DNA from: Minisyncoccota bacterium
GTDB lineage: Bacteria > Patescibacteriota > Minisyncoccia > Phycocordibacterales > UBA2100
Assembly (NCBI GenBank): GCA_022842645.1
Contig: JALHPE010000001.1
Span: 7,711-71,710 of the forward strand
DNA length: 64,000 nt
Direction of reading: 5' to 3'
Shown: positions 390-62,240 of the stretch, piece by piece
Position numbering within the stretch: position 1 is the stretch's first letter
How the letters are laid out: every line of letters starts with the position of its first letter
Notes under the pieces: model-generated
The model's database searches: none
What the model saw: only the letters and a program-made list of their open reading frames with translations
What the model was told of the DNA's origin: nothing
Position numbers and translations under genes: made by a program

Positions 390-464
390 CTCACAAAGCG
401 CGAATCGGGAATGCGTTCCCGTCAAGATAGGCACGCGTGCGAGTCATGCTACTATGCCTTCAAC

Positions 465-1691
465 ATGGCAAAGCAAGTACGACCAGATGTGGAATCCTTT
501 GCGCGAATTCGTGTCGTTGGCGTTGGCGGCTCTGGTGGTAACACCATTAACCACATGGTCTCGTCGCATGTGATTGGCGTCGACTTTCTCGCAGTCAACA
601 CTGACGCACAGGATCTCGCAAAATCAAAAGCAAAACGCAAGATTCATATTGGTAGAAACCTTACACGCGGCCTCGGAACCGGCATGGATCCCGATTTGGG
701 AAAGCAAGCAGCTGAAGAGACACGCGAAGAGATCCAGGAAGCACTAAAAGGTTCTGACATGGTGTTTGTTACCTGCGGTATGGGCGGCGGCACTGGAACC
801 GGCGCAGCACCCGCTGTCGCAAAAATTGCACGTGAGCTTGGAGCCCTTACTGTCGGTGTTGTAACAAAGCCTTTTAGTTTTGAAGGCGCTCAACGCGGAC
901 GTCTTGCAGAGCAAGGTATTATGGAGCTCCGCAAATCAGTCGATGCAATCATCATCATTCCCAACGACAAACTCCTCTCCGTTGTCGCAAAAGAAACGGG
1001 CATTAAAAATGCGTTTGCGATGTGCGACGATATCCTGAAACAAGCTGTTGAGGGTATTTCAGATCTCATCACGACGACCGGTATCATCAACGTCGACTTT
1101 GCTGATGTACGTTCAATCATGCACAACGCTGGTTCCGCACTCATGGGTATCGGTATGGCAATCGGTGAGAAACGCGCAGAAACAGCCGCGCGTCTTGCCA
1201 TCAACTCCCCACTTCTTGAAGTGTCCATCAACGGCGCAAAGGGTGTACTCTTTTCTGTCGCAGGTGGTGATGATCTCTCTATGCTCGAAGTGCAAGAAGC
1301 GGCAAATGCGATTACTGAAGCTATTGACCCCGAGGCAAAGGTTATTTTTGGCGCCGTAACAGACGAAACTCTCAAGAAAGGACAAATCAAAGTTACTGTT
1401 ATCGCAACAGGATTCCCAGAAAATGTTGGCGGGCGTGTAGCATATCCGGCACAACCAATGCCTGCACGACTCGCAAAACGTGAGCCCGAAATGCCTCCAG
1501 TAAGAAAAATGGAGCAACCGACCCAAGCTCCTGCATCGACACCCATGCCAGCTCCTCAGATAATAAAAGAATCGACACCCCCCGTGAAAGATCAACAGAA
1601 ACCCCGCGAACTCGCGCCCCAACAAAAGCAGGATGTGAATGAAGAAGATGATATCTGGGGAGGCTTTCCTTCATTTCTTCGCAGGAAATAG
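465..1691 (+). CDS. ftsZ: Cell division GTPase FtsZ
   Basis: Tubulin/FtsZ signatures [14 protein letters not shown] and [10 protein letters not shown], and a C-terminal Pro/Gln-rich tail. The ORF track begins at 411; the ATG at 465 (MAKQVRPD...) gives a canonical N-terminus. Confidence 0.95.
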
Positions 1692-1771
1692 TCTGTAGAC
1701 TATAGTTTGTAGTCTGTAGTAAAATATAGAGACTTTTTGTTTACTACAAACTACAGTCTACACACTAAAAA
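1691..1771. repeat. Heptad-array palindromic element, copy 1: (NNNGTAG)x4, 25-nt spacer, (CTACNNN)x4, ending 3 nt before the trxB ATG
   Basis: Read directly: gtctgtag actatag tttgtag tctgtag, then a spacer, then ctacaaa ctacagt ctacaca ctaaaaa. The same architecture and long exact matches occur at 62150-62240 and 23488-23524. Confidence 0.6.
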
Positions 1772-3844: not shown

Positions 3845-4093
3845 GTAGGCACGATACTAACAGAACATAGGCCTTTTGCACACTTCAAGTTGTTTCCGAT
3901 GGTAAATCCATTTTTCCGGGATGAGAAGTAAGCGCCTCTAGAATGGCGCGACGCAACTTCTCTGCCCCGTCTTCAGGACGGGGTAAATGTTCAAAAGATT
4001 CTTTCACCTTTTAAGCATACCACGTCCTTTAATCCGCCCCCTCCCATACCCTCTTCATAAGTGCCAAAAAGTGTTGTAGTATGCGCCGCGTAA

Positions 4094-4165
4094 GGCCTCA
4101 TCGTCTAACGGCTAGGACAGCGCCTTTTCAAGGCGTTAATCGGGGTTCGATTCCCCGTGAGGTCA
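4094..4165 (+). tRNA. tRNA-Glu (anticodon TTC)
   Basis: Acceptor GGCCTCA/TGAGGTC, anticodon stem GCGCC/GGCGT with loop TTTTCAA, T-arm CGGGG-TTCGATT-CCCCG, 72 nt. Confidence 0.85.
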
Positions 4166-5870
4166 AAGACAGAGATTTATCAACCTTGAATTGTTCAGAA
4201 AGCCTGAAAATAGGCTGTAATTTTGGTGTTCCATTAAGGATTTCGTGGTAGGTTGGTGTTTTCTCAAAAAACAACGACATTAAAGCCCTTCGAGACTGTA
4301 AATCATCAGCCTTTTCGAGTATTTCAGCAGGGTGTTCCATTACGCGCTTTGCGTAACGAATAAAGCCCTTGATTCCTTTTTCGTTTACCTCAATCGTGCC
4401 ACGCTTACTCTCCGCATCTTTGATCTGTACGTCGAGCGCTTCAATCTCTCTTTCAAGCATCTTTCTCGTAATGATGCTTTCTGCAACTTCAAACGCTTTT
4501 AGTTTCTGGGCTTGCTCTGCCTTAAGTTCGCTTACACTCCTGCTGATTGCCGATGACATTTCAACAATGTCTTTCTCTTTCGAGCGATATTTGCGTACCA
4601 ACTTCTCTTCAAGTTTCTCCAAAAAACCCTTTTCAAAGCGAAGATTATCAATGTAGTTTTTAACACACTTCTCAAGATCTGCTTTTCTAACTCTGAATCC
4701 AGAGTGTGCTCGCTTTCCGTTTTTCACTCCTCCACAATGATACGCGGGAAAATGCTTACCTGACTTTCCGCGAGGTGCACTACCCAAAAGTTCCGAGGTG
4801 CAGAATGGGCAAGTAATCACTTTCCACGGATAGTCTGGATTGTTACGTAAACGTTTGGTTTTACCCCACGGAGAATAGTTATAAAGTACCTCCACGCTCC
4901 CATCCCCATGCTCCTTAACGAAAACTTTGCCGCGATTTGCTCGATTAAAAAGATCAACCGAAACCAGTCCATTGAATTCTCGTAGTCGTACTGGTTGATG
5001 CTTTGTCCACGACTCACAAACAATGCCTGCATATTCTGTTTGCGTAATACGTCTTTGTAATTGTTTAACAGTAAGTAATTTGCCGCCCTTCTTTCCAACT
5101 ACGGTCGGATGCTCTTTATTACTCCGATCCCAGCGTCGAGTCGTTAAGGTGCGATATCCCATTGCGTTTATGGTTTTAACAATCTCATTGTCATCAACGC
5201 CAGCCGCGCGCATCTCAAATATTTTTACCCAGTAATGTGATCGCTCTGGATCAGTCGCGCGAATCACACGGTCTTTTCCATCATAGAAAAATCGCTTATT
5301 AATCATTCCGTCTGGCGCACGACGAGTTGCCCATCCTTCTCTGGCATAGCGAATTTGTGCACCAATCATTCTCGTTAAAATCTGTCTTACTTCTTGCTCA
5401 CCATTATAGGCTGTTATCATTTCAGCCGATTCACTTGGGTAGTATTCACTCCACTTATATTTAACCCCAAGGTGTTCAAGTGTGTTACGTTCAGGCTGAA
5501 TTATTCCATATACGTCGCACATTTGAACACCTAATTCAGCAAGTTCGCGCTTCATCCTCTCGTAAACCACATAACCTGCCCTTGTTGCACGATCAATACA
5601 TTTGATAATGTATTTTTTAATGGGCTTATCAGTGTGTATTCGACTACGGATGTACATTTTTACTTCCTCAAAATCTTGTCTTTCTTTAGTGGTTCCGGAA
5701 TGCGGTTTCTTGAAAACCTCTGCAACGATCCAACCACTACGTTCGGCAAACTGTCTTCCAAGTTTTTCCTGATCATCCAAACTGTCGCCCTTAAGTTGGG
5801 AGGGGTCGCTTACACGGCAATCAATTACGCAGTATGTAGGTCTTTCAGTCATACTCCTACATTTTAACAA
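4128..5870 (-). CDS. Large serine recombinase (phage-type integrase)
   Basis: N-terminal resolvase catalytic domain (YCVIDCRVSDPSQ...DQ with the catalytic Ser, ...IDRATRAG), Cys-rich zinc-ribbon (CPFCTSELLG...HFPAYHCGG) and a C-terminal coiled-coil. The 3' end overlaps tRNA-Glu. Confidence 0.85.
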   Translation of the reverse strand: MLKCRSMTERPTYCVIDCRVSDPSQLKGDSLDDQEKLGRQFAERSGWIVAEVFKKPHSGTTKERQDFEEVKMYIRSRIHTDKPIKKYIIKCIDRATRAGYVVYERMKRELAELGVQMCDVYGIIQPERNTLEHLGVKYKWSEYYPSESAEMITAYNGEQEVRQILTRMIGAQIRYAREGWATRRAPDGMINKRFFYDGKDRVIRATDPERSHYWVKIFEMRAAGVDDNEIVKTINAMGYRTLTTRRWDRSNKEHPTVVGKKGGKLLTVKQLQRRITQTEYAGIVCESWTKHQPVRLREFNGLVSVDLFNRANRGKVFVKEHGDGSVEVLYNYSPWGKTKRLRNNPDYPWKVITCPFCTSELLGSAPRGKSGKHFPAYHCGGVKNGKRAHSGFRVRKADLEKCVKNYIDNLRFEKGFLEKLEEKLVRKYRSKEKDIVEMSSAISRSVSELKAEQAQKLKAFEVAESIITRKMLEREIEALDVQIKDAESKRGTIEVNEKGIKGFIRYAKRVMEHPAEILEKADDLQSRRALMSLFFEKTPTYHEILNGTPKLQPIFRLSEQFKVDKSLSLTSRGIEPRLTP

Positions 5871-6113
5871 CTTTTCTTCTTGTAGAAACTATATTCTTCT
5901 CACGAATCCACATATCTAACAGCGTATCTGCAAGATGATCTAACAATATATCCACATTAACATTTAAGTTGTTATCTGACGGATTAGATTTTGTAGCGGT
6001 CAACTGTTGGAGGAAGTTATCTTGACCCGAACTCATAAAGTTCAGGTTCGTGTGTTATGACTCGTTGCGCAAACGAATGTACAAGTTTCTAAAATTCAGT
6101 AAAAAATAAAAGT

Positions 6114-6169
6114 CGGCTATATAGCCGGATAATTTTTTTACGTTTTTTATGAAATCGGCTATATAGCCG
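6114..6169. repeat. Two copies of the perfect 14-bp palindrome cggctatatagccg (6114-6127 and 6156-6169), each followed by a T-run
   Basis: Read directly. They lie in the integrase upstream region of the element. Either tandem terminators or operator sites. Confidence 0.5.
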
Positions 6170-6484
6170 ACTTTTAACTTATCCCCAACATATGGACTTA
6201 TTCATGACAACACAAAGCGGAACCTTAACCGTCAAGAGTTGTTGTGTTGAGCGTACGAAGCAAGTAAACTGTCTACGTTCGCCCTCAAAGCGAACATTTC
6301 AAAACAAAGACCTAAACCCTCGCTTCGGCGGTGGCATGGTCTAAAAGTCGGATGGAGCGTAGGAACCCCGTCATGTGGTTGCTTCATCCGCCGTATCGGG
6401 AAACCGGTGCGTTCGCGTAAGCGAAGACCCGTGGCGGGTTTTGTGTTTTCTAAAATTCCGCCTTTACAAGAAAAGTGAACACAT

Positions 6485-6613
6485 ATGGACTACGATGATC
6501 TGACAAACGAAGTGGAAGAACTTAAAGCGCAAATCTATAAACTGCGTAGTGAATTAAACTTCTTTGCCACATGTTTTGGATTTGTAGTGCTTATGATCCT
6601 GATATGGAAATAA
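6485..6613 (+). CDS. Small hypothetical protein (43 aa) with a C-terminal transmembrane helix
   Basis: ATG..TAA ORF (MDYDDLTNEVEELKAQIYKLRSELNFFATCFGFVVLMILIWK) below the ORF-track cutoff and inside the mobile element. No homology support. Confidence 0.25.
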   Translation: MDYDDLTNEVEELKAQIYKLRSELNFFATCFGFVVLMILIWK

Positions 6614-6623
6614 CTAAACTCCT

Positions 6624-6866
6624 ATGCAATATCTAACCCTCACAATACTCGCAGTCGCTTTCTTTGCAGGGCAAGCGTTTTTAACTCTCACTCTCCAACA
6701 AAAAGAAAGTAACGAGGAGTTTGCAAAACACGTTCAAGAAAAGATCTTTGATGATTGTTTCGACTACTACGCGGCAACCTCACGAGAAAGAGGTATTGAT
6801 AAAACCACAATTCAGACATGCGTAGACAAGACGAGCGATTGGATGAAGTCTATAAACAATCTGTAA
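6624..6866 (+). CDS. Hypothetical small secreted protein (80 aa, N-terminal signal-like helix)
   Basis: ORF-track ORF; hydrophobic N-terminus LTLTILAVAFFAGQAF. Confidence 0.4.
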   Translation: MQYLTLTILAVAFFAGQAFLTLTLQQKESNEEFAKHVQEKIFDDCFDYYAATSRERGIDKTTIQTCVDKTSDWMKSINNL

Positions 6867-6889
6867 ATTTATTCCGCGCGGAATGAGAA

Positions 6890-7276
6890 TTAAGCAAACT
6901 CGGCTTTATCCTCCTCGGCAGGTTCCAACATTTTTGACTGCAACATATCAAGCCGCTCCTGTGCGAGAGTGAGTTCAAACCCTCGCGCATTCCTCCCAAA
7001 TTCGTCTGGACAGCGTTTTTCCAAGTATCGCATGGCAAGATGCGGGTCTCGCTCTAAATTGTCTACAACGGTCTTTTTTGCCTTTAAAATGGGGTTCAGT
7101 TTCCACCTCGCTTTTTGCTCCACAAAGTCTGGGGTTGCCGTCTGATAGTTATACAGCGTTTGTGGTGCAATTTTGGCTGAATTACAGGCTTCTTCGTCTG
7201 TTGCCCCTATCTGAAAAGCGTCTTCGAGTTTTTGGAGTACGCGAGGAGTGATTTTTTTGGGTCTGCCGAGTGTCAT
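6890..7276 (-). CDS. Phage-like HTH DNA-binding protein (terminase-small-subunit-like N-terminus)
   Basis: N-terminus MTLGRPKKITPRVLQKLEDAFQIGATDEEAC resembles the GRPxKYTPE HTH of phage TerS/Nu1-like proteins. Acidic C-terminus. Confidence 0.4.
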   Translation of the reverse strand: MTLGRPKKITPRVLQKLEDAFQIGATDEEACNSAKIAPQTLYNYQTATPDFVEQKARWKLNPILKAKKTVVDNLERDPHLAMRYLEKRCPDEFGRNARGFELTLAQERLDMLQSKMLEPAEEDKAEFA

Positions 7277-7311
7277 ATCACTATTTTACCGGAAATAAAC
7301 ACGCTGATACA

Positions 7312-8598
7312 ATGCTGTCCAATCTACCCACCATGTCTGGATTCCTGAAAACACGAGAAGTCTTTGAAGAAACGTATCGCGTTGACGATTTGTTGGATTT
7401 TTCGAGTGAAATCAATCGTCTTGATTCGGTAATTCAGCAAGCACCTTACTCGGCGTTGGTTGGATACGTGGGACGTTTTGGCTCTGGAAAGAGCACGGCT
7501 ATTTACCAATTGCGTAAACAGTATGAGCAAGCAAAAAAATCTAAGTGGTTTGAGTTTGATGCATGGAAATATCCCGAACGTCGTGATCTGTGGGAGGGCT
7601 TTGTACTCGATATCGCAGATCAAATGGGGAGCAGAAAGAGAGTGAAGAAGCAGATTGACGGCGATACGAAAACATCGAAAACAGTTGGTGCGATCTCTGA
7701 AATCGCACAAGGGCTTGCCGCTTTCACTGGTCTTTCCTACCTCGTCAGCAAATTTGCACACCTATTCGATAAACAACCCATTGAGCGCGTTTTTGAGTTG
7801 CAAGAGATCCTTGTTGCGATGTTCGGCGCAGTAAAAGAAAAAGACATTTTCATTGTGGTCGAGGATATAGATCGATCAGGTGATGCGGGGCAATATTTCC
7901 TGGAAACACTGCGGCAATTTATTAAGAATAACCTCGCTGAAAAGCGCATCGTTATTCTCGTGCCTATCGGCTCAGAAATTTACGACAAAGAAGACGATCT
8001 TCACGACTCCTTGCAAAAAGTACTCGATTACCAGGTGCATTTTGAACCTCGGTCGGTGAAATACTCAAAGTTCCTGGATTATTTTGATGAAAGTACGTTT
8101 CCTGCAACTCACACCGTGCAAGCGAACGTGCAGGATAAATCTCTTTGGCGAGAGCATATTGAAGACTGGTTTGCTCTTGCGGCTCGTAATGGTCTAAACA
8201 TACGAAAGATTAAATCCGCTGTTCGTGAAGCAAACGCCGCCTTTATTGATCTCCGAGCAAAAGAATTTAAACCCGATCCTCGAATTGTACTCGCAATCAC
8301 TCTGCTTAATTATGTTTACACAGAAGGAAAGAAACGATGGGTAACGCGACTTGAAACCAAGCATGATATTACGAGTAATTGTCCTATTTATAATTATCTG
8401 CAAGTTGTCGCGCGTAACCAGCGACTGTCAGAATACCCAGGGCACTGGAGACCAGGAGCAACGCATTTTGTTGAGGATCGAGAGTTAATCCTTCCGGCGT
8501 ATGTGACTGATTCTAGAGCGCCGAACGGAGAGCCGACAGGAAGATTTTGGCTCTCGGATTTTTACTTAATTCCCTTTGGTAGAAATACCCAAGGATAG
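7312..8598 (+). CDS. KAP-family P-loop NTPase
   Basis: Walker A GRFGSGKST followed by the KAP-diagnostic FEFDAWKYPERRDLWEGF, and Walker B IVVEDIDR. The ORF track starts at a GTG at 7270, overlapping the upstream gene; the ATG at 7312 is preferred. Confidence 0.75.
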   Translation: MLSNLPTMSGFLKTREVFEETYRVDDLLDFSSEINRLDSVIQQAPYSALVGYVGRFGSGKSTAIYQLRKQYEQAKKSKWFEFDAWKYPERRDLWEGFVLDIADQMGSRKRVKKQIDGDTKTSKTVGAISEIAQGLAAFTGLSYLVSKFAHLFDKQPIERVFELQEILVAMFGAVKEKDIFIVVEDIDRSGDAGQYFLETLRQFIKNNLAEKRIVILVPIGSEIYDKEDDLHDSLQKVLDYQVHFEPRSVKYSKFLDYFDESTFPATHTVQANVQDKSLWREHIEDWFALAARNGLNIRKIKSAVREANAAFIDLRAKEFKPDPRIVLAITLLNYVYTEGKKRWVTRLETKHDITSNCPIYNYLQVVARNQRLSEYPGHWRPGATHFVEDRELILPAYVTDSRAPNGEPTGRFWLSDFYLIPFGRNTQG

Positions 8599-8794
8599 TA
8601 GATAATATAGTTCGATAGATCATTGGGTACATAAAATTCAGTGCTTCTATTGCTCAAATACCTTGTTTTATGTGACAAATTCAGTACCCGATGATCCAAT
8701 ACGTACAAGGCTAAATACCTGATTCCAGTGCAAAACAGTATTTTCTATAGTGTTCCAGTCAAAGTACAATGGGCTCAAATCGAACGAAGTGAGG

Positions 8795-8811
8795 TTTGAC
8801 CTCACGGGGAA
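8795..8811. repeat. Inverted exact 17-nt copy of the tRNA-Glu 3' end, within hairpin gtgaggtttgacctcac
   Basis: tttgacctcacggggaa is the reverse complement of ttccccgtgaggtcaaa at 4151-4167. Candidate distal boundary of the integrated element. Confidence 0.5.
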
Positions 8812-8846
8812 GAAAGGGGTCGGGAAAACATTCTGTTTTCCCGTGG
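8812..8846. repeat. Hairpin motif GAAAGGGGTCGGGAAAAC-N4-GTTTTCCCGTG (second copy at 23754-23786)
   Basis: Near-identical 33-35 nt hairpins at two unrelated loci. Confidence 0.5.
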
Positions 8847-8865
8847 AGGAAGGATTGGGAAAACC

Positions 8866-9645
8866 GTGGGTTTCCCAGAACCCCGTTGTGGTCAAAATTC
8901 ATGCCGATGCCTTAACGCCTGGTACAATGTCTCCATGCGAGAAAAGATACAAGTACCGTCGTCTGCTGAATCCTCCGAAGTCACGGTACCGCTGGCAGAG
9001 GACAAGATTCTTCACCGACTTCACCAATGCACAAACCCCGGCGCAAATTGCTCGCCCGAAGATGAGGAAGAACTACAGAAAGACCTTGAACGCTGTGAGG
9101 TTTTCGAGATGTACAATGCCTATATCGAGAGTCGTGTACCAACCCTCCCTCTCTTGGGGAAGAACATCACTGACTTAATCGAAAGAATCCCCAATAAACT
9201 ACGCAATGACCCAGAAACAATTTCTATTGTTAATTATTTGAAGGGGCGACACGCGTCGATTGGTCACGATCTCCGAGCTTATGTTACGCTTGTTATTAGA
9301 TTTGTAACGCTTGAGCAATCAACTCTGAGATTCAGAGATTATGAAAAATACATCGATCAAATAAAAAAAGTTGACGCTGATCGCCGAAGAATGCACGACA
9401 ACCTCTTAGCTTCCTTGGATATGCTCCGCCAAAAAATGGAAGAGGTGTATGATTTGGGATTGTGCGAGAAGAATGATTTTTATGTTTGGTCGCCAGGTGA
9501 GACACGTGAGATTCCCATAAACGCAGTGCCGGTTTTCGCCTCCACAGCAATTGCGAATCGAGACCTTATTAAAAATTGGGCGCTTGCCGCGGACTTTGCA
9601 GAACATTTTGAGAAACTATCGCAACTGCTGGCAGAAAAAAAATAG
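8866..9645 (+). CDS. Hypothetical protein (259 aa); alternative start at 8935 (MREKIQ...)
   Basis: Long ORF with no recognisable motif; followed by a hairpin terminator. Confidence 0.45.
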   Translation: MGFPEPRCGQNSCRCLNAWYNVSMREKIQVPSSAESSEVTVPLAEDKILHRLHQCTNPGANCSPEDEEELQKDLERCEVFEMYNAYIESRVPTLPLLGKNITDLIERIPNKLRNDPETISIVNYLKGRHASIGHDLRAYVTLVIRFVTLEQSTLRFRDYEKYIDQIKKVDADRRRMHDNLLASLDMLRQKMEEVYDLGLCEKNDFYVWSPGETREIPINAVPVFASTAIANRDLIKNWALAADFAEHFEKLSQLLAEKK

Positions 9646-9668
9646 GCATCCTGTGGTTACAGGACGCC
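9645..9668. terminator. Hairpin ggcatcctgt-ggtt-acaggacgcc between convergent genes
   Basis: Stem-loop directly after the stop of the 8866-9645 ORF, preceded by an A-run. Confidence 0.45.
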
Positions 9669-9955
9669 TACTGATTGGCTCGATTTGCCTCTGCTTTTAC
9701 GACAATACAGTAGCAGAGCTTGAGAGCAAACGCCGCATACGCAAGATCGTCATCAGGTAGTGCCAGCGCACTGCGGTGTGATCGCAAAAGATCATAGAGA
9801 TCCTTGCAACGAACATCCGTCCGAACTATTTCTGCTTGCTCATGAGGGTTGTATCCATGCAAAGCTTCACAAGAAGGCAAAACAAGACTGAGAATGTGCG
9901 TTGCTTCTTGCGGATGCGTTTGTGTAAATTTTTTCCAACGACGGAGCTGGCTCAT
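9668..9955 (-). CDS. Hypothetical protein (95 aa)
   Basis: ORF only. Confidence 0.3.
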   Translation of the reverse strand: MSQLRRWKKFTQTHPQEATHILSLVLPSCEALHGYNPHEQAEIVRTDVRCKDLYDLLRSHRSALALPDDDLAYAAFALKLCYCIVVKAEANRANQ

Positions 9956-9999
9956 GTGCCACCTTCCTTTCCTACTGCACTATAACACAGATGTACAAT

Positions 10000-10620
10000 T
10001 TATGCAAAACTTTTTTCGCTCCCTACTGAAATCACCCCCTCCCGCAACACCTGAATATTTCCCTCACTCACATCCACAATCGTCGAAGGCAATCGCTCCG
10101 GAAGCTCACCCGCATCAATCACAAGGTCGATGAGCTTGGCTCGCGCACCCAGTTGCGCGAGTATTTTCTCCGGAGAGCGGTCTGGTTGCATGCCCGCAAG
10201 ATTGGCGCTCGTCGTCGTATAGGGTCGCCCAAACGCACGCGCCAGCTCGAGACAAAATTGAGTGTCTGGCATGCGGAATCCGAATTCATCCCTTCCCTCG
10301 CACATTGCAATAACCGCATCGGCACGCTTTCGGAGAATGAGCGTGAGCGGCCCCGGCATATACGCACTCGCGAGCGCAAGCGCCATCTCGTTCACTTCCC
10401 CATACTCGGCCGCCATGTGTAAATCGGCGACAATAGCGTGTATAGGCTTTCCCTCTTCTCGTCCCTTAATTTCTCGCACTTTTGCAAGTGCCTCATTCGA
10501 AAGCGCATCTGCACCCAGGCCATACAGAGTGTCTGTGGGATACAAAACAACACCTCCACTACGAAGAGCTGTGACACTCTTCGTGATTGCTTCCGGACTC
10601 TTTATGGAGATGATTTCCAT
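10000..10620 (-). CDS. tsaC: L-threonylcarbamoyladenylate synthase (TsaC/YrdC/Sua5 family)
   Basis: YrdC fold signature LYPTDTLYGLGADA. The 206-aa length fits the single-domain TsaC. Confidence 0.85.
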   Translation of the reverse strand: MEIISIKSPEAITKSVTALRSGGVVLYPTDTLYGLGADALSNEALAKVREIKGREEGKPIHAIVADLHMAAEYGEVNEMALALASAYMPGPLTLILRKRADAVIAMCEGRDEFGFRMPDTQFCLELARAFGRPYTTTSANLAGMQPDRSPEKILAQLGARAKLIDLVIDAGELPERLPSTIVDVSEGNIQVLREGVISVGSEKSFA

Positions 10621-12532: not shown

Positions 12533-13723
12533 ATGCGCATCCTTGCCATAGAAACCAGCTGCGACGAAACGGCTGTCTGCATCATCGAAGCAGAAGGAGA
12601 GGGGTTAGGTGTTAGGTTCCAGGTGTTAGGGAATGCCCTTCTTTCGCAAGCAGTCCACGCACAGTATGGCGGAGTTTTTCCGAGCCTAGCCCGGAGAGAA
12701 CATGAACGGAATCTTGTTCCCCTCTTCCAGAAAGCACTGGAGGAAGCGAAGTTGTTGAAGTCGGCACATAATCAAGGCGACACATCGTTGATAGAGAAGG
12801 TTTTACATCGCGAAAACGATCTGCGCCCGCAACTTGTCGCATTTTTGAAAGAGCATGGAAAACCCGATATTGATTGCATTGCGGTGACGCATGGCCCGGG
12901 GCTTGAACCAGCTCTTTGGGTTGGCGTTAATTTTGCACGCGCGCTTGCACATGCGTGGAATCTACCCGTTGTTCCGGTGAATCATATGGAAGGACATCTC
13001 ATCTTGTCGGCTTTAGCCGGACAAGATGAGAAGTATCAAGTATCAAGTATCAAGTATCAAACAAAACACAAAGTCCAATTTCCACTTCTCGCACTTCTTA
13101 TTTCTGGAGGGCACACGGAACTTGTTCTTGCGCGCGAATGGATGAAATATGAACTTCTGGGACAAACGCGTGACGATGCTGTGGGCGAGGCGTTTGATAA
13201 GGTAGCGCGCCTGCTTGATCTTCCCTACCCTGGCGGACCGGAAATAGATAAACTCGCCAAACGCGCCCGTGATGTGGGACTTACGAAGTCCCACATTGAA
13301 TTGCCGCGACCGATGATTGATACAGATGATTATGATTTCTCTTTCTCCGGGCTCAAAACCGCTGTTCGCCGCCTCGTTGAATCGAAACAACCACTGTCAG
13401 AACAAACGAAGATGGAGATTGCGCGGGAGTTCGAGGAGGCGTGTGCGGATGTGCTTGTGGCAAAGACACTCCGTGCCATTGAGGAGTACAATATCGAATC
13501 GCTGGTCGTTGGCGGCGGCGTTTCGGCAAATGAGTACATTCGCGAGCGCCTTGCGGAGAGTATTAAGAGCTATGGCTTGAGTACGAAACTGCTTATTCCC
13601 CCACGCGAGCTTGCAACCGATAATGCACTTATGATCGCACTCGCAGGCTATTTCCGTGCCCTTAACAAGGAATGCGCTGAACCAGAAACGATTCGAGCGA
13701 ATGGGAATTTGAAGTTGGTATAA
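12533..13723 (+). CDS. tsaD: tRNA N6-adenosine threonylcarbamoyltransferase TsaD (Kae1/Gcp)
   Basis: N-terminus MRILAIETSCDETAVCI, metal-binding HMEGH, and LISGGHTELV. Contains two short in-frame insertions built from simple repeats (see findings). Confidence 0.9.
   Translation: MRILAIETSCDETAVCIIEAEGEGLGVRFQVLGNALLSQAVHAQYGGVFPSLARREHERNLVPLFQKALEEAKLLKSAHNQGDTSLIEKVLHRENDLRPQLVAFLKEHGKPDIDCIAVTHGPGLEPALWVGVNFARALAHAWNLPVVPVNHMEGHLILSALAGQDEKYQVSSIKYQTKHKVQFPLLALLISGGHTELVLAREWMKYELLGQTRDDAVGEAFDKVARLLDLPYPGGPEIDKLAKRARDVGLTKSHIELPRPMIDTDDYDFSFSGLKTAVRRLVESKQPLSEQTKMEIAREFEEACADVLVAKTLRAIEEYNIESLVVGGGVSANEYIRERLAESIKSYGLSTKLLIPPRELATDNALMIALAGYFRALNKECAEPETIRANGNLKLV
12603..12632 (+). repeat. 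GGTGTTAGG-type repeat (ggttaggtgttaggttccaggtgttagg) inside the tsaD N-terminal coding region; related copy at 51461-51490
   Basis: The two loci share a 14-nt exact core taggtgttaggttc. Confidence 0.55.
13031..13058 (+). repeat. Perfect tandem (AAGTATC)x4 inside the tsaD coding sequence
   Basis: Read directly: aagtatcaagtatcaagtatcaagtatc. The 7-nt unit is not a multiple of 3. It encodes KYQVSSIKYQ, an insertion relative to canonical TsaD before the ALLISGGHT motif. Confidence 0.8.
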
Positions 13724-21916: not shown

Positions 21917-23713
21917 TTACTCATCTCCTCCGCGCACCACCTTCAGAAACACCTCGTGAGGGATATCAACCTTCCCGCGTGCAAGCATTTTCTTCTTGCC
22001 TTTCTTTTGCTTTTCAAGAAGCTTCATTTTACGTGTGATGTCGCCGCCGTAGAGGTACCCGGTTACGTCTTTGCGCATCGCTGACTTCCTGCGCGATGCG
22101 ACGATCTTTCCATCGCATTTTGCTTGAATTTTGAGCTCGAAGAGCTGTTTCGGAAGAAGCTTTTCGAGCCGCTCAACAAGCGCTTCGGCTTCGTGGCCAA
22201 CGCGTCGTTTTGAGACGATGCGCGCAAATGCAGGCACGAGCTCGTCGGCAACAAGAATGTCCAGTCGAACCACATCCGCACTCCTCAGTCCCAGCAACTC
22301 ATATGAGAGCGATGCAAAGCCTGAAGAGACGCTTTTTAGGCGATCAAAGAAGCCTCGCATAAGCTCGCGCAGCGGCATCTCAGCTGCGAGCTTTACCTTG
22401 CCGTCGGGAAGTGTTTCTGTCTCCCCCACTACCGCTTCATGATCGAATAGAATCTGCGAAATACCGCCGAGATAACTCGGGGGTGTAATGATATCAATTG
22501 CCGCCCATGGCTCGCGCACTGATTTAAGCGTGCCGTCATCAGGAAAACGTGCAGGATTATAAATTTCCTCCACACGCCCGTCTTGGAGTGTAATCTCGTA
22601 CACAGTTGTGGGACTTGTGACCACAAGCGGTAAATCAAATTCGCGCTTCAACCGCTCGATAACAATCTCGAGATGAAGCATCCCGAGAAATCCACACCGA
22701 AATCCTTTCCCCATGACACCAGAGGACTCTTCTTCGTACGAAAGTGAAGAATCGGAGAGGCGCAGACGCTCAAGCGCCTGGCGGAGCTGTACTAAATCGT
22801 CTTGCGACTCTGGGTACACAGACGCCCAAATAACAGGCGCTGGAGCCCTGTAACCGCCGAGCGGAGCGCCACTCATGCGCGCAGAGAGCACTGTGTCGCC
22901 CACAGAGGCAATACCCGGCTTTTTAATGCCAGTCACGATGTAGCCGATTTCCCCTTCCCTAAGCTCATCGCGCGGGGTTTCGTCGGGCGTGAGGACTCCC
23001 ACTTCAAGTGCCGTAAACGAGGCGTTTGCTGCTGCAAGCTTGAGTGAATCTCCCTTTGAAACGCGCCCGCCAAAGAGTCGACAATAAATGATGACGCCGC
23101 GATGGTCGGAATATGAAAAGTCATAAACGAGTGCCTGCATTTTCTCTCCCGAGCTTCGGGGCGGAGGAATACGCTCAACAACCGCGTTCAAGAGTTCTGT
23201 AACACCAACACCTGTCTTACCTGAAGTAAGAATCACGTCGCGCTCGTCACATCCAAGCAGCATAGTGAGTTCTGTCTTCACGTCATCAACACGTGCGTGT
23301 GGTGCGTCTATTTTATTTACTACGGGGATGATCACCCTCTTCAATTCGCGCGCCGTCGAGAGAACCGAAAGTGTCTGCGCCTCAACCCCCTGTGTGGCGT
23401 CCACGAGGAGCACAACCCCTTCAACGGCCGAGAGTGCACGTGAGACTTCGTAGGCAAAATCAACGTGGCCGGGAGTATCGATCAGATTTAGTGTGTAGTT
23501 TGTAGACTGTAGTTTGTAGTTCATCCGGACGGGAGCCATTTTAATGGTGATGCCACGCTCGCGCTCGAGATCCATACGATCCAAGACCTGTTCTTTCATG
23601 GCTCGCTTTTCGATCGTGCCGGTGAGCTCGAGCATGCGATCGGCCAGGGTGGATTTCCCGTGGTCAATGTGCGCGATTATCGAAAAGTTTCTAATGTGTG
23701 AAGACATATTCAT
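21917..23713 (-). CDS. lepA: Elongation factor 4 (LepA); likely true start at the second ATG (23707)
   Basis: IRNFSIIAHIDHGKST G1 motif, DTPGHVDF, and the LepA-specific C-terminal domain ending KKGKKKML..; 598 aa. Confidence 0.95.
   Translation of the reverse strand: MNMSSHIRNFSIIAHIDHGKSTLADRMLELTGTIEKRAMKEQVLDRMDLERERGITIKMAPVRMNYKLQSTNYTLNLIDTPGHVDFAYEVSRALSAVEGVVLLVDATQGVEAQTLSVLSTARELKRVIIPVVNKIDAPHARVDDVKTELTMLLGCDERDVILTSGKTGVGVTELLNAVVERIPPPRSSGEKMQALVYDFSYSDHRGVIIYCRLFGGRVSKGDSLKLAAANASFTALEVGVLTPDETPRDELREGEIGYIVTGIKKPGIASVGDTVLSARMSGAPLGGYRAPAPVIWASVYPESQDDLVQLRQALERLRLSDSSLSYEEESSGVMGKGFRCGFLGMLHLEIVIERLKREFDLPLVVTSPTTVYEITLQDGRVEEIYNPARFPDDGTLKSVREPWAAIDIITPPSYLGGISQILFDHEAVVGETETLPDGKVKLAAEMPLRELMRGFFDRLKSVSSGFASLSYELLGLRSADVVRLDILVADELVPAFARIVSKRRVGHEAEALVERLEKLLPKQLFELKIQAKCDGKIVASRRKSAMRKDVTGYLYGGDITRKMKLLEKQKKGKKKMLARGKVDIPHEVFLKVVRGGDE
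23488..23524 (-). repeat. Half-copy of the heptad-array element inside the lepA coding sequence (encodes MNYKLQSTNYTLN)
   Basis: In the lepA sense strand, ctacaaa ctacagt ctacaaa ctacaca ctaaat. Its first 19 nt match the right arm of copy 1 (1744-1762) exactly. In plus orientation, 24 nt (agtgtgtagtttgtagactgtagt) match the left arm of copy 3 (62156-62179) exactly. Confidence 0.6.
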
Positions 23714-36701: not shown

Positions 36702-39700
36702 TTATCTCAACCCGCCCGGAGGAACCGCGCACCCGGCAGGATTTGGTTCGGCTTCGCAGAGGCATTGGATGAACGAATTGATTGGTTGTTCTGGCTCGCA
36801 GGTGCGCACGTCCTCTGGCGTAGGGTTTCCACTTTGCCCGCTGGACCCGCCCCCTCCTCCATTTCCACTGCCCGAACCGCTTCCGCCTGTGCCTACGGGC
36901 GTGCTCTGACTTCGCGCGATTTCTTCCGGCGTGAATATACGCTCCGGATCAGAATCGTCGCCACGCACACGCACCAGTGTCTCATGCAGAAGTTTATCGG
37001 TTGTATTCTTCGTGTTGCACACCAAGCCAAAACGAGTCGATTCGGTGATTGTTGGCGAACTGATAGATCCGTTCTGAGGGCCACGATGGAAGACTTTGAA
37101 GTCTGCGCTTATAACAGCGCACGTTGAGCTTCCGACATCGGTCCCGACACTCGACCACGAAAGCGTTGTTGTGGATCCAGAAGTTATGAACGAGGGATTA
37201 GCAACAATTGCACCCACGATAACCACCGGCTGCGGAGTGGATTGCGGCTCAGTCGGTGGTCGAGGAGGCTCTTCCTCCCCTCCTCCACCAAAATCAAAGA
37301 ACGCAAATAAGCCCTGGAGGAGTCCTTGCAAAACACTCATCCCACCGCGAGAGAATCCGCCCGAGCCACTGCCAGAAGAAGGAGGACTGCCGGGCACATC
37401 TCCAGAAGCAGAATCTTCAGGGGTGGAATCCCCCGGCGCACGACCATTTGTTTTTCCACTAGAACCAGAATCTGCATTGGCGCCAGGAGCACCACCTTGT
37501 CCGCCACGATCGCCGTTTGCACCCCCATCTGCAACAGATCCTACGCCGCCTCCGTCTCCTCCTGTTGCATCTTGTTGTGCCTTCTCTTCTTCTCCACTTT
37601 CACCTGGCGTAGCGGGTGCAACTCCTTGTGGCTCACCACTTTGCGATTCAGAGGGGGGCGCATCTCCAGGAGGCGTAGAAGTAAGAACACCACTATTCTG
37701 ATTTTGAATGGTCGTGTCGGGAGTAGATGGCGCTTCTGACGTAGCAGGAGTTTCTAAAGGCTCTTCTCCCCCAGGCATAATCGCATACACCCCCGCGCCA
37801 CCTAATAACATACTGACCGCCGACAAACATGAACGGAAGCCTGTACACATATCCCACGCTCTGCGTGCAACAGACGTTTGATTAGAGGGTGTATTTTGGG
37901 GCGATGCCGTGTTTACCCCTGCTCCCGAGCCGCGTGCTTGCGCCTCAGCCGTAGCCCCCCTTGCGTAATCATCAAGCGCACCTCGTGCAAGCGCGAGCAC
38001 TTGTGGATCATCTAGCTTGGCACCGTTTGCAAGTGCCCCATCAACGTCATCGAGCTTGCGTGCAGCATTGTCATACAACCCGGAAGCTGAAGTACCCTTC
38101 GTTATTACAGCCTTTTCGATCGCTACATCGCGAAGGAATTTAATCTCTGCAATCTGTGCTTCGCGCGCAGCTTGTGCGCGCGACCACTCATCAAGGCGTT
38201 TTATAAAATCATCGTTAATTGGAGCCACATCCCTACTAACTGGAGCTACAGCCTCAGGAACCACAGCGGCTGGAGGAGTGTCTGGAATGGGCGGTGGGGT
38301 TGGGGTGGTATCGCGCGGAATCGGAGGCGGCGTTTGCGGGAGCGGAGGTGGAACCGCATCAACAATCGGCGCACGTGGAAGATTTGCATTAGGCAGTGGT
38401 GACGGCGTTGTGGCTGGTACGTCTGGAAGTGCATCTCGAGCCAGGGCACCTGTGGGTAAAACGTCTCTTGTAAACCACCCACGTAACGATTGAGCTGCGT
38501 CTCCGATCGATGATCGAAGAGATGTCAAAGAGAAACCTTCCGAAACAGGCACAAGCGCATCCGCTCGATCCGGTACAAATGCACCAGCTTCTCCTAACGA
38601 ACCTTTTATTTCTTTTTCCTTTTGCCCCGGACGGAACGTGAATGGCGAAGGGGGAATGGACGGTGGAGTAGTCACTTGTGTATTTGGCGGTGGCGCAATG
38701 TCTGCAGCTACGACAGGCGCAGCAGATGGCGGGCGTGGCGTATCGCGGACAAGAGCAACAAAACTCGGTGACTCCGGAAGAGTTGGTGCAGGTGTGCCAG
38801 GCGAGCGTGGAGTTGTGGGCACAGGCACTGCCGGTGCCTCAGCCACAGCAGGAGTGTTGTCGGCAACAGTAATTACAGAAGGAGTTGGTATATCCTCCAC
38901 ATCAACTGCTCGAACAACTACATCAAAAGAACTATTCGCGATCACGGTTGGAGCAGAGATAGTATCAAAAATCGCGAGGGCAGTTACAACTTCTCCATGA
39001 GATAACGATTGGACGGTCGGGATATCTACAGCGGAGACTGTACGAACTTCCGGAATAGTAGAAACTTTTGCTAATAATGTATTTATTTCGATGACCGCAT
39101 TCTCAACTTTTGCTCCCTGAGAAGCGATTCTTGCTTTGAATTGAGCTTGGTTCGCGGCTTTGCTAAAAATATTACGTGCATAAAAGTTATCAACCTCCTG
39201 AGCCAAACTGCTCACATTTGTGCGCGCTATTTTCGCCTGCTCCAATAATCCTTCTCGAACATCACTGGGCACGAGAGGATTTTTGGCGACATTCTCTGCT
39301 GCGTCCGCTAATCTACCGACACCTGAACGCAAAGAGGGAGATGTGTTTTTTAATATCTCAAGGCCATCTAAACCTCCGATTTGCCTTGCTCGCAATAGTT
39401 CTTCCTGCATTACCTTTAAACGTCTAATACTCGGGGGTATAGCAACTTGTGCTTTTGCCAAATCTGCTTCTGCGGCAGCCACTAATTCTTTTCGAGGATT
39501 CGGTGCTATTGGCGGGTTTGTCTCAGAAACCAACATTGAAGTAGGAGAAGGGGGCGGGAGACTCTCTTCTGCTGCTCGGCGTGCACGTGCGGCAATCTCT
39601 GACAAATCGGCCAAAACAGTCGCTTGATCGGGGGAGGAACCGATGCCGGCGCGCCACACTTCGTCCATGGCAGCAAGTTGTTTACGCAAAATTTCCGTCT

Positions 39701-42700
39701 CCCCAAGTGGTAAACTTTCTCGACGAAGATCTGCAACGAGGTTCTCACGTAATACCTTCGTAGCTTGTTCTTCAGCACGACGTGCAATCTCATTCGGATC
39801 GCCTTGTATTCTACTGCGCCCGATCCCCTCTTGGTACTGCCGATTTGCAATCTCAATCGCACGCCGATTTGCTTCGACGGAGACATTTTGATTCGCAACC
39901 TCTCGAGTGGCTTCGGGACTTGGCGGTTGGTTTCCTCGAACAAAATTCCTCACGTTATTCATAAGACCTTCGATACGATTTCCTGCTGCAATGACACCCT
40001 CCGTCACACCGTATAGAATCGCATTCTGTATACCCGCACCCGAAGTCTCATTACCCACCGAATTCATAGCAGGGGTATCCCCGCTTTGAGGAACATTTGC
40101 AACAACTGTCGGGCCATCCAGAGCTTGAGGAGCATCCGCAACTACAGGTCTCGCAGCTGGTGTTGGTTCGTTTATCAATTTTGGTTCTGTGGATATCTGC
40201 GCCACATACGTCTCTGTCCTTGAAAAATCCGGACTTATAGGGCGTGTTGCGGCGATGATGGGATTATCTTGATTAACAATTGGCGTTGCCCTAACATCCA
40301 GCGGCGAAGGAACATCTGAATAGACTTGAGCAATTTGCGCTTCTACTGCTGCTTCCCTTCCTAACGCGGCCTTCATCAGACCTCCTAACCCACGATCGCC
40401 AATAGGGATTTCTGACACAACGCTCTGATCCGGCCTAAGGATAAAGGGTGATCTGCCACCATCAAGATCCTGCGCTATACGGGGAGCATCCGGAGAGACT
40501 GCGGATTCGGGCACCTGGGCAATCTGCGTACGTGGCAACTTCGCCACGGCATCGATATCTGCCTGAATAACAACATCTGCTGCCGTCATCTCTGCAATCG
40601 TAGGCTCGGTTCCCAGATCAGGGCGGCCTGCTATATTTTTTGCAAGGGCACTTTGGTATCGCTTGTATGCTTTTGTGTCTTCAAACCCAGCCTGTTTCAG
40701 TGCCGAAGCGATTGAGCGATTATATGCAAGAGAAGTTGCTACATCCGGATTCGGAGTAATTGGGTCAAGCGTGCGAGCACCGATTATCATTTTTGCCGCC
40801 TCACGTTCGCGCTGGGCAAGTTGTATTTTCGCTAGATCTTCGCTGGCTCTCGCTGGCAGACCTCCCGCCGGTGCACCCAAAGACGCTTCACGGAAGTTTG
40901 CAAACCCCGCGAGCACGTCCGCCTCACCAGTCTGGTGATTTACAATACGGATATTCGGATTCCATGCGCGAGCGGCATCAGCCATAATGAGACTGCCCAG
41001 TACCTGCCCACCATCAGGCAAATCCCCTTTTTGCATGACGGTCTCCACACCGATACCCCGGTGACCAAACTGGCGAGCATGGGCGTAGTATTCATCAAAA
41101 GGAGTGAGTATGCCTATATCCACCACTTTCTCACCGGCAATATTTGTCTGGGTTCTTCCTAGGTACGCTGACACATACACGCCTGAGCCTCTTCCGTTGT
41201 TTGCATTTGACTCAAGGATTTTGAACATATCGTATGTATTTGCACGTGTCTCGTGAAATACCAATAAGTCTCTCTGTGCAGGAGTACGGACCCTACCAAC
41301 GTTCTCACGATTAGCCCAAACGTCGTTCATATACCACAATCGAACTGTGTATGTCTCTCCATTAAATGGAATTTTTTTAACCGCAACTGAAACATCTACC
41401 TCACCTTTTCGCGCCGTCCTGACTTTCAGTGTTTGCATGGTTGCATCCGGCAATATAGGCAAACTTGATGGATTAATAGTTGCCCCCGTGCTGCACATTT
41501 TTGCGTCAGTGCAGACAGCGGTTGCAACCGCATCGTTACTCGCAGGGACAGGTGCTGTTGTATTTGTGGGCTCTGAAGTTGGGTTACTGGGAGGAACTTC
41601 GCCGTCTCCTGAGCGCACAACCGGGTTCGCGACCTCCGGAGGAGTATTTACTGCTCCCTGATTCGCATTCGGCACCTCAGCAATTGCAGTAGGCCTTGAT
41701 GTTTGAGCGTACCACTGAGCCGCTGGTTCTGAGCCGAATACTTTTGCAAGACCGTCACGTAACGCCTCATTTGTAATGGGATCCTCGATTCCATATCTTG
41801 CCAGTGCTGGATATTCTGCTTTAAAGATTCCCTTCGTTAGAGCCGCCCGAGCAGCAAGATCGTTGCGCGCAATGGGTGTAGTAAGTGTAAGTCCCCCTGT
41901 TTCTGCATGGCGCAAACGAGACAAATCATCAAAGGAACCGTTGATCACATCAGTACCAACCCACAACTTAACCACATCGTTATAAGTTTTTGCATTTACG
42001 TACGCTGGTTGGTAATCCAATTTTGCTGAAACCATAGCCGCAGCGTCTGCGTGAGAGGCAAAACATGCGTATGGAGCGTTGCAAGATATGATATTTATTT
42101 TCTCGGGCACAACCTTTGTTAAGTCAGGCTTGCCATTGACAATTGGGACATCGTTGAAAAGCTCTGGTTTGATTTTCTGTACTTCGCGCACACCTTCCCA
42201 TTTCATTCCCCCGAGATTGTTTAATTCTTTAGCAGCGGCAACATGCCTCGAACGAACGTCGACATTTCTCCATTGAGTTTGATTTCCTAAAAAACTTACC
42301 CTACTGGTATCACTACCATCGCGACCAAAAGAAAGAGTGACGGGGCTTTTCTCCCCCGTAACCACACTAGCTGACACAGAGTCTCCTGCTTGCGCAAGAC
42401 CAATCGAAGAACCTTCCGGCATAAAAAGAGAAAATGGAGGGAGCGCGGCGGGATTCGGAGTGGCTGCAAGTCCAACGATGACAGCCGCTTGCTTTAATAC
42501 ACGACCAACTGGCGTCTCGCCTATTCGAGACAAGACTGTAGGGGCGGATGGTATCAAACGATCGACTCCTGCTCCGCCTACAAGAGAATCTATCCCACTT
42601 CCCCCACTTGGAACATTTGATGGGGCATTTGAAGCGCGCATAACTGGGGGAGGTTGGATATTGCGAAGCGGAATACTCTCCACGTTATTGATTCCAGACA

Positions 42701-51460: not shown

Positions 51461-51490
51461 AGGTTTTAGGTTCTAGGTGTTAGGTTCTAG
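51461..51490. repeat. GGTGTTAGG-type repeat (aggttttaggttctaggtgttaggttctag) in the groES-groEL spacer
   Basis: Shares a 14-nt exact core with 12603-12632. Confidence 0.55.
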
Positions 51491-53930: not shown

Positions 53931-53949
53931 CCACTTTATTAATTATTAA

Positions 53950-62014: not shown

Positions 62015-62120
62015 AATACATCAAGAGTGCGGTGAAGGTTCTGGCCTTTCGATCCGCCCCCAACCCCTCTTCCGAGGACGGTGGGAAACCAGTCCTTCGG
62101 GCAGATGCACTATTTAGATG
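62015..62120 (+). promoter_or_regulatory. SAM-I (S-box) riboswitch-like leader of metK
   Basis: CATC-AAGAG-TGCGGTGAAGG-CTGGCC...CCCCCAACC...GGTGGGAAACC...GCAGATG resembles the S-box consensus (AAGAG, GGnGGAGGGA, CTGGCCC, GCAACC, GGTGCnAAnnCC, P1 closing GATG). Followed by a terminator hairpin. Canonical position upstream of metK. Confidence 0.5.
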
Positions 62121-62146
62121 TCTCCCGTATGGGAGCTTTTTATTTA
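62121..62146 (+). terminator. Expression-platform terminator (tctcccgtatgggag plus TTTTTATTT)
   Basis: Hairpin plus U-run directly after the riboswitch-like element. Confidence 0.5.
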
Positions 62147-62149
62147 CCA

Positions 62150-62240
62150 GTCTGTAGTGTGTAGTTTGTAGACTGTAGTCGAGAAATTCCTCGCAACGCA
62201 CATACTACAAACTACAATCTACTTTCTACAAACTATTCAT
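62150..62240. repeat. Heptad-array palindromic element, copy 3 (gtctgtag tgtgtag tttgtag actgtag, 25-nt spacer, ctacaaa ctacaat ctacttt ctacaaa ctattcat) ending at the metK ATG
   Basis: Read directly; 24-nt exact match to the lepA copy. Confidence 0.6.

Follow-up and report, generated by a model that had tools for sequence, protein, structure and literature searches.

Tandem repeats with a seven-nucleotide (nt) period have been described from several bacterial lineages. Heptameric simple-sequence repeats (SSRs) are reported to be over-represented in bacteria, with polymerase slippage proposed as the cause (PMC4692102, citing a 2007 survey). These repeats, among them the short tandemly repeated repetitive (STRR) sequences of heterocystous cyanobacteria, GGGAATC of Xanthomonas and GGGGAYT of Nostoc, show an excess of period 7, are mainly intergenic, vary in length and sequence among close relatives at the same gap and include some inverted pairs (Rehm 2015, PMC4692102), all of which is also true of the arrays reported here. 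The closest published analogue is the group of TAACTGA heptamer repeats of Beggiatoaceae, Cyanobacteria and Bacteroidetes, which end ~1 nt before start codons that are devoid of a ribosome-binding site (MacGregor 2015, PMC4679880). A third literature deals with GTAG-tagged repetitive extragenic palindromes (REPs), their paired, hairpin-forming derivatives (REPINs) and the REP-associated tyrosine transposases (RAYTs) (Di Nocera 2013, PMC3733652; Bertels and Rainey 2011, PMC3116915). Here, we analyse a 64,000-nt stretch of the genome of a Minisyncoccota bacterium (assembly GCA_022842645.1, contig JALHPE010000001.1, positions 7,711 to 71,710; hereafter, the window), in which two palindromic arrays of TAG/CTA-cored heptads run up to the start codons of trxB and metK. 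Since the same heptad family fills gene gaps and protein loops of this tiny-genome bacterium, the palindromes are probably not a dedicated start-codon signal. Our preferred, if tentative, reading is that the arrays are heptanucleotide repeats generated by slippage and spread by templated copying, which are either tolerated in stop-to-start gaps or of slight use there. Heptamer repeats and GTAG-tagged REPs were known already; what is new here is the palindromic TAG/CTA heptad variant, and we found no description of such arrays in Patescibacteria in the literature.

The two palindromes are ~80–90 nt long and have a common layout, with four N4TAG units, a spacer of 24–26 nt and four CTAN4 units (Table 1). 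Copy 1 extends from the stop codon of ftsZ to 2 nt before the ATG of a thioredoxin-reductase family gene (trxB), with 'CT' between the last unit and the start codon at 1774. Copy 3 extends from the terminator of an S-adenosylmethionine (SAM) riboswitch to 1 nt before the metK ATG at 62241, from which it is separated by a single 'T' (all three genes were assigned with NCBIfam). The first-pass annotation had described four-heptad inverted arms around a spacer of roughly 25 nt, and the sequence is as described, apart from two units of copy 1: the second unit of the 5′ arm, which has ATAG instead of GTAG, and the last unit of the 3′ arm, which has CTAA. Tandem Repeats Finder (TRF) assigned a period of 7 and 4.6–5.1 copies to each arm, and the 5′ arms contain in-phase UAG triplets, of which copy 3 has four and copy 1, if the stop codon of ftsZ is included, five. 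The claim that the two copies share heptads but differ in their spacers was borne out as well, and the arms are conserved beyond chance: 13–14-mers are exactly common to copies 1 and 3, the spacers are unrelated, and the GTAGNNNGTAGNNNGTAG motif, with at most one mismatch, has 12 matches in the window against 0.09 expected. Moreover, the window holds seven period-7 arrays compared with none in shuffled sequences, and no arrays at periods 8 or 10–12.

The arrays resemble the TAACTGA repeats (PMC4679880) in consisting of tandem 7-nt units (2–6 copies in TAACTGA repeats) that are mostly intergenic, in presenting stop codons in all three frames when read one way, in including a few in-frame genic copies in the stop-free orientation, and in overlapping, in some cases, the stop codon of the upstream gene; for both, any function is putative. 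They differ in the units, which are N4TAG/CTAN4, TAGAACC, AAGTATC and TTATTAA here, in the two-armed palindrome (one inverted case was reported for TAACTGA repeats), in the stop-free nature of the ATG-adjacent arm and in the host, a member of the Patescibacteria whose mRNAs seem to be mostly leaderless. The heptameric SSRs of PMC4692102 are G-rich and were discussed as quadruplex formers, whereas the present arrays are TAG/CTA-cored or AT-rich, and their arms form one compact palindrome that fills the stop-to-start gap. With the GTAG REPs (PMC3733652, PMC3116915), the palindromes have in common the GTAG motif, the inverted pairing into a larger hairpin, the use of TAG as the stop codon of a flanking gene, the in-frame genic copies and, for relatives in other phyla, the preference for tandem and convergent gaps. 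However, a REP is a 20–40 bp unit with a 6–13 bp stem-loop beside one unpaired GTAG, whereas here each arm has four GTAG copies at 7-nt intervals, which are predicted to be paired and are themselves the hairpin stem.

When considered as RNA, both palindromes are predicted to fold into long hairpins (−31.4 and −28.5 kcal/mol; z-scores, −4.8 and −4.7), in agreement with the first-pass annotation, and in either copy exactly 6 nt separate the hairpin foot from the AUG. The spacers contribute at most a 4–5 bp stem. The same annotation had proposed that the 5′ untranslated regions of both mRNAs would fold into a hairpin ending at the initiation codon; the hairpin potential is indeed strong, but a trxB transcript initiated from a promoter in the spacer would carry only the 3′ arm. 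A promoter scan of the region upstream of trxB yielded such a candidate, with a −10-like TAAAAT (1720–1725) located in the spacer and a −35-like TAGACT (1696–1701) 18 nt upstream. The TAAAAT is part of an 18-mer (GTAGTCTGTAGTAAAATA) that is identical at the orthologous site of another lineage (L150), a TAnAAT column is present in the alignment of orthologous ftsZ-trxB gaps, and an extended −10-like box occurs 15–45 nt before the ATG in nearly all of the 80 TrxB loci that we collected for comparison by a metagenome scan. If this putative promoter is real, the trxB mRNA would contain only the 3′ arm, which on its own is predicted to be unstructured (z-score of +0.4), and the hairpin would form only in transcripts reading through from ftsZ. 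Copy 3 lies between the riboswitch terminator and the metK ATG and would therefore be transcribed whole. Neither palindrome matched a family in Rfam 15 at the gathering and E-value thresholds, and the only hits were generic microRNA-model hairpins far below threshold. We also considered and rejected an intrinsic terminator: the palindromes are followed by CTAAAAACT and CTATTCAT, with no U-tract, and a terminator scan called only the riboswitch terminator (62122–62135) and a site within ftsZ.

Heptad arrays are not restricted to the two start codons. The N3GTAG family occupies three loci within ~84 kb of this genome, the third being a single arm within lepA, which is the 'copy 2' missing from the earlier numbering. 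Exact matches of 25 nt and 20 nt link this arm to the 5′ arm of copy 3 and the 3′ arm of copy 1, respectively, and its encoded peptide sits in a hypervariable hairpin loop of LepA. A near relative with 93% LepA identity is devoid of the three arrays that the corresponding segment of the window contains; at lepA, the array amounts to a same-length replacement relative to that genome, whereas in tsaD the AAGTATC array lies inside a 12-residue (36-nt) insertion (EKYQVSSIKYQT). The near relative has AAGGTTTCG at the latter site, and local seeding from a single AAGTATC is only suggestive. The coding copies, which are in frame within two essential genes, avoid stop codons: the lepA array is read as CTAN4, and in the second tsaD array the sole unit with a potential in-frame TAG reads CAG instead. 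At the same LepA loop, a homolog from Candidatus Kaiserbacteria (P0101) has an insertion of ~20 residues (...NQESRIKNRDSAFDIRDS...), which resembles, at the protein level only, the translation of an AATCAAG heptad array.

Another family of units, of the TAGAACC type, occupies the entire groES-groEL gap, and the distance from the array to the ATG of groEL (2 nt) is similar to the distances at trxB (2 nt) and metK (1 nt). None of the three genes has a Shine-Dalgarno site. Overall, an array is found upstream of only ~4 of the roughly 50 genes in the window. A 23-mer of the groES-groEL array (TAGAACCTAACACCTAGAACCTA) is identical to part of the trxB-upstream array of a different lineage (L146, 555–580), that is, the two copies reside at non-orthologous loci in two lineages; this identity points to array copying or transfer rather than to independent slippage.

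The family placed exactly at start codons that was initially proposed can thus be recognized in the two copies abutting the trxB and metK ATG codons, but the same units are also present within the lepA coding sequence. As for the further claim of a dedicated regulatory or translation-initiation element, it is not supported, in view of the 25-mer in lepA, the arrays in tsaD and the array-free closest relatives, as well as the scarcity of Shine-Dalgarno sites as a norm, the −10 box in the trxB spacer and, in other phyla, a frequency of convergent gaps twice that of divergent ones (see below). That trxB and metK lack a Shine-Dalgarno site, as also pointed out in the first-pass annotation, is correct, yet such a lack is the rule of the genome, in which only 7 of the 50 long open reading frames (ORFs) have a site of this kind, and is not special to these two genes. 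Of 47 genes, 8 have a TAnnnT hexamer exactly 6 nt upstream of the ATG, compared with roughly 1–2 at most other spacings, which suggests that the genome is largely leaderless, with widespread leaderless mRNAs. Examples are the ORFs starting at 7276(−), 14049(+), 16293(+), 28041(−), 34843(−), 36676(−) and 58531(−). The LepA and MetK homologs place the window with Candidatus Kaiserbacteria, within Patescibacteria.

Table 1. Heptad arrays and associated features of the window (positions are those of the 64,000-nt stretch)
Feature	Position	Strand	Sequence or remark
ftsZ stop codon TAG	1689-1691	+	in phase with the copy 1 5′ arm, as its first TAG core; ftsZ ORF 411..1691
Copy 1, 5′ arm	1692-1719	+	TCTGTAG ACTATAG TTTGTAG TCTGTAG; form N4TAG x4
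Copy 1, spacer	1720-1743	+	24 nt
Copy 1, 3′ arm	1744-1771	+	CTACAAA CTACAGT CTACACA CTAAAAA; form CTAN4 x4; last unit CTAA
TTAGGTG-family array (second unit family) within tsaD	12605-12632	+	
Perfect AAGTATC x4.3 array within tsaD	13031-13060	+	
Copy 2, single arm within lepA	23485-23519	-	five units, in frame; read CTAN4, encodes NYKLQSTNYTLN
Second unit family, groES-groEL gap	51461-51490	-	gene strand TAGAACC TAACACC TAGAACC TAAAACC
TTATTAA x3 array	53936-53957	+	between the ABC substrate-binding gene and RNase J
SAM-I riboswitch aptamer	62015-62111	+	44.2 bits against a gathering score of 44.4; E = 8e-9
Riboswitch terminator	62122-62145	+	stem 62122-62135 plus T-run; directly upstream of copy 3
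Copy 3, 5′ arm	62151-62178	+	TCTGTAG TGTGTAG TTTGTAG ACTGTAG; form N3GTAG x4
Copy 3, spacer	62179-62204	+	26 nt; unrelated to the copy 1 spacer
Copy 3, 3′ arm	62205-62239	+	CTACAAA CTACAAT CTACTTT CTACAAA (to 62232) plus degenerate fifth unit CTATTCA

Comparison of orthologous ftsZ-trxB gaps revealed a patchy distribution of the arrays. The closest relatives of the window gene (78–80% TrxB identity) have no array, and full or decayed palindromes are present in other lineages. In L148, a complete palindrome of the form (NNCGTAG)x4 ... (CTACGNN)x4 spans the gap between the ftsZ stop codon and a point 3 nt short of the ATG; palindromes made of other units occur in L138 and L146, and those of L144 and L145 are decayed. 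The units of the arms differ by lineage and match within an element, as exemplified by TGTAG/CTACA in the window and CGTAG/CTACG in L148. The aligned consensus reads stop-TAG, (N4TAG)x4, TAnAAT, spacer, (CTAN4)x4 and CT-ATG, so that the recurring TAG/CTA architecture brackets a conserved −10 box. More distant Patescibacteria often carry single arrays of unrelated units (CTAACAA, ATTTACT, TCATTAT, TACAATC) between the −10 box and the trxB ATG. The possibility that the heptads serve as tandem −10 boxes (TAnnnT) was rejected as an explanation for the arrays at large: TAGTCT, TAGACT, TACAAT and TACAGT would fit this pattern but the CGTAG units of L148 and the TAGAACC units upstream of groEL do not.

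The metK leader shows comparable variation between the riboswitch terminator and the ATG. At 92% MetK identity (L215), there is no array, and ...TTTTTTAACC directly adjoins the ATG; at 89% (L216), a different TAG/CTA heptad palindrome is found; at 86% (L218), there is again nothing; and at 81% (L217), the site holds a single array, CTACAAG CTGCCAG CTAATAA CTACAAG CTATTCT. The block from ~62147 to 62240 is absent from L215 and no target duplication accompanies the insertion, so that, relative to L215, copy 3 is a clean insertion of ~91 nt. As judged from these alignments, turnover at the metK terminator-ATG site is high. The core of the SAM-I aptamer is visibly conserved in four orthologous metK leaders. 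In several database entries for MetK homologs (P0123, P0141, P0155, P0164, P0190, P0210 and P0221), the called protein has an N-terminal extension of 30–55 residues reaching into the leader, and in P0190, at least, the extension includes the translation of a CTACAAG-type array (…NYYKLPANNYKLFY-MFH…). Such extensions are an artefact of gene calling that results from the arrays being stop-free.

To place the window in a broader frame, 564 kb of Patescibacteria loci were surveyed with TRF for arrays with at least three copies. Period 7 was the most common, with 47 arrays, followed by periods 6 (16 arrays), 9 (9 arrays), 5 (3 arrays) and 8 (2 arrays). By crude ORF calls, 39 of the 47 period-7 arrays are intergenic and 8 are coding, and most of the intergenic ones either start at a stop codon or terminate 0–13 nt upstream of a start codon. 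Arrays ending 0–13 nt upstream of start codons recur, including at many trxB orthologs and two metK orthologs. The TAG core is not obligatory, as shown by a palindrome in L214 without any TAG (CGAAATC ... GATTTCG). In Patescibacteria bacterium H51-bin041, by comparison, the units are nearly those of the window (L058, 501–593; TTTGTAG TGTGTAG ACTGTAG TCAGTAG ... CTACAAA x4); this palindrome lies between pilT-like and pilC-like genes, as read from their translations, and stretches from the stop codon to 7 nt before the ATG.

These observations can be accommodated, although only tentatively, by a scenario in which a fast-evolving class of heptanucleotide arrays populates this genome and, with other units, Patescibacteria generally. 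The arrays would arise and grow via replication slippage at period 7, and templated events (for example, strand switching or ectopic gene conversion) would copy or homogenize them between loci and between arms. Events of this kind would give rise to identical 20–25-mers at unlinked sites and to arms that stay complementary despite the drift of the units. The sites where arrays survive would be stop-to-start gaps, promoter-to-start or terminator-to-start gaps and, provided that the reading is in frame and stop-free, surface loops of proteins. As a by-product, the TAG arm would close all three reading frames behind the upstream gene, with the ftsZ stop codon as the first TAG, and the CTA arm would provide a G-poor, unstructured leader without a Shine-Dalgarno site up to the ATG. 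At trxB, the main transcript would have the 3′ arm only and read-through from ftsZ alone would form the hairpin; at metK, a hairpin of −28 kcal/mol, whose foot is 6 nt away from the start codon, would form and is likely to dampen or modulate initiation, or to protect the mRNA. We infer these effects on trxB and metK expression from sequence.

Several lines of evidence weigh against the slippage-and-copying scenario. The upstream regions of trxB and metK are identical in all 12 independent assemblies of the population that were compared, its contigs recurring across a series of metagenomes, and the arrays are thus not hypermutable on the time scale of this population; a contingency locus or phase variation, which we considered as well, finds no support in these identical regions. 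The sense strand of start-adjacent arrays is poor in G (33 G compared with 109 C; 14 arrays with fewer G than C, 3 with more), which suggests selection at the RNA level, although many of these arrays belong to trxB orthologs and the counts are therefore not independent. At ftsZ-trxB, the in-phase TAG/CTA cores persist down to 61% TrxB identity, with the other four positions changing jointly in both arms, and this pattern looks more like constraint than neutral filler. By a rough estimate, upstream regions of trxB carry arrays several times more often than other gaps of the same loci. Finally, slippage alone does not account for the frequent inverted arms.

Part of this evidence can be turned into an argument for a cis-acting translation element, a possibility that we consider less likely, if far from negligible. 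In this case, the periodic CUA-N4/UAG-N4 arrays would provide a platform for the ribosome, for example through S1, or for a putative oligomeric RNA-binding protein, and would, in a genome geared to leaderless mRNAs in other respects, allow or tune initiation on leadered or internal cistrons that have no Shine-Dalgarno site; the palindromic form, which brings the upstream stop next to the downstream AUG, could serve termination–re-initiation coupling or mark a processing site. Such a role is consistent with arrays ending 0–13 nt before starts in many Patescibacteria loci, with unrelated units at trxB and metK orthologs, with the G-poor sense strand and with the fixed position of the hairpin foot relative to the AUG in both window copies. 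The retention of the TAG/CTA phase together with the CT-ATG end across ftsZ-trxB gaps points in the same direction. However, 'CT' also precedes the ATG in 18 of 61 trxB orthologs without arrays, so that the phase may merely reflect local seeding. The translation element is further at odds with the array-free closest relatives of both genes, with the same array residing inside lepA and with the small fraction of window genes that have an upstream array, and the proposed role would need no 5′ arm. A similar spacing of sites is known for HutP of Bacillales, whose XAG triplets are spaced by 4 nt, which gives the same 7-nt period. The same role in translation was proposed for the TAACTGA repeats (PMC4679880), and HutP binds XAG-rich regions, two of which are present in the hut leader of Bacillus subtilis (PMC2425495). 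Both HutP sites are on one RNA strand, whereas here the second arm reads CUA, and we treat the resemblance as a lead only.

The architecture extends well beyond Patescibacteria. A search of 185,579 species genomes with the pattern TGTAGNNTGTAG N15-45 CTACANNCTACA returned at least 119 loci, compared with about 17 matches expected by chance for the whole collection under a rough uniform-composition estimate. Among the matches listed, to which the counts that follow refer, are Acidobacteria, Hydrogenedentes, Bacteroidota, Gammaproteobacteria, Nitrospira, Planctomycetota, Chloroflexi, Cyanobacteria, Peribacteria and other Patescibacteria. An arm has three or more in-phase TAG units in 95 of 124 palindromes, and the free NN positions are complementary between the arms in 90 of the 124, compared with ~8 expected. 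Within a genome, the TGTAG-heptad palindromes form dispersed families with conserved inner stems. By crude longest-ORF calls, which leave 13 'inside ORF' cases that are not trustworthy, the palindromes occupy 60 tandem, 22 convergent and 11 divergent gaps, often abutting stop codons. With such a distribution, start codons are not a general requirement of the architecture. In viral contigs, the counts do not show the TGTAG core to be special, with 7 palindromes compared with 10, 5 and 31 for control cores.

Dispersed multi-copy TGTAG families with conserved inner stems, and the predominance of tandem and convergent over divergent gaps, are reminiscent of REP distribution and bring up the unlikely alternative of a REP/REPIN-like miniature mobile element from a GTAG-tagged superfamily, in which a putative RAYT-type (Y1) transposase would recognize GTAG beside a hairpin and the heptads would be reiterated tags. 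The GTAG core was counted in favour of this alternative for every unit, and the clean metK insertion without target duplication and the identical 20–25-mers at unlinked loci would also fit. Moreover, the first TAG supplies the ftsZ stop codon, as in GTAG REPs, for which in-frame intragenic copies are known too (PMC3733652). Against a mobile element of this kind, there is no REP body, the arms being made of the tags themselves; arrays free of GTAG (AAGTATC, TTATTAA, TCATTAT and the CGAAATC palindrome of L214) behave alike; and in viral contigs TGTAG palindromes are no commoner than those with control cores.

A bolder proposal, which we regard as improbable, is that the UAG-N4/CUA-N4 arrays are a widespread, undescribed class of cis-elements, read by a putative oligomeric RNA- or single-stranded DNA-binding protein or by the ribosome, and enabling translation of leadered or internal cistrons. 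The palindromic form, with the upstream stop codon and the downstream AUG at opposite feet of a single hairpin, would then serve termination–re-initiation coupling or guide processing to an mRNA that is nearly leaderless. Such elements may be frequent in Patescibacteria and occur in many further phyla, and, if the proposal is true, the persistence of TAG/CTA at ftsZ-trxB and the G-poor strand would reflect function rather than mutation bias. Least probable is a DNA operator array, in which a putative dimeric or oligomeric DNA-binding protein would sit on the inverted arrays flanking a −10 box and control transcription: the trxB arms are symmetric around a −10-like box and three heptads make 21 bp, or two helical turns, but the metK copy lies downstream of the riboswitch terminator, in the transcribed leader, with no convincing promoter in its spacer, the copy in lepA consists of one arm located within a gene, the spacers are unrelated between copies and the unit sequences differ between orthologous sites.

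Translation start in Patescibacteria, or Candidate Phyla Radiation (CPR), is essentially unstudied, and in the window the small number of genes that are leadered or internal are often preceded by heptad arrays reaching as far as the ATG. Arrays with a function would give access to non-canonical initiation in a very large group of bacteria that are uncultured. If they are only mutational filler, they would be a fast source of insertions into protein loops, as in tsaD and lepA, and of leader change, and would mislead gene callers. In either case, the TGTAG-heptad palindromes of many phyla join three separate literatures, on heptameric SSRs, on TAACTGA repeats and on GTAG-tagged REPs.

Apart from the arrays, the window contains a LOOT RNA (RF03000) at 6309–6425, which scores 76.1 bits against a gathering score of 46.4. 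The G+C content dips to 0.43–0.45 at 4001–10000, compared with 0.50–0.54 elsewhere, and the region of the dip adjoins tRNA-Ser and tRNA-Glu. It includes a 580-aa ORF (4128–5870, minus strand), for which a shorter gene call has a weak resolvase match, as well as a KAP NTPase-like gene, and is possibly an integrated element. On the minus strand, 36702–46565 form a single ORF of 3287 residues.

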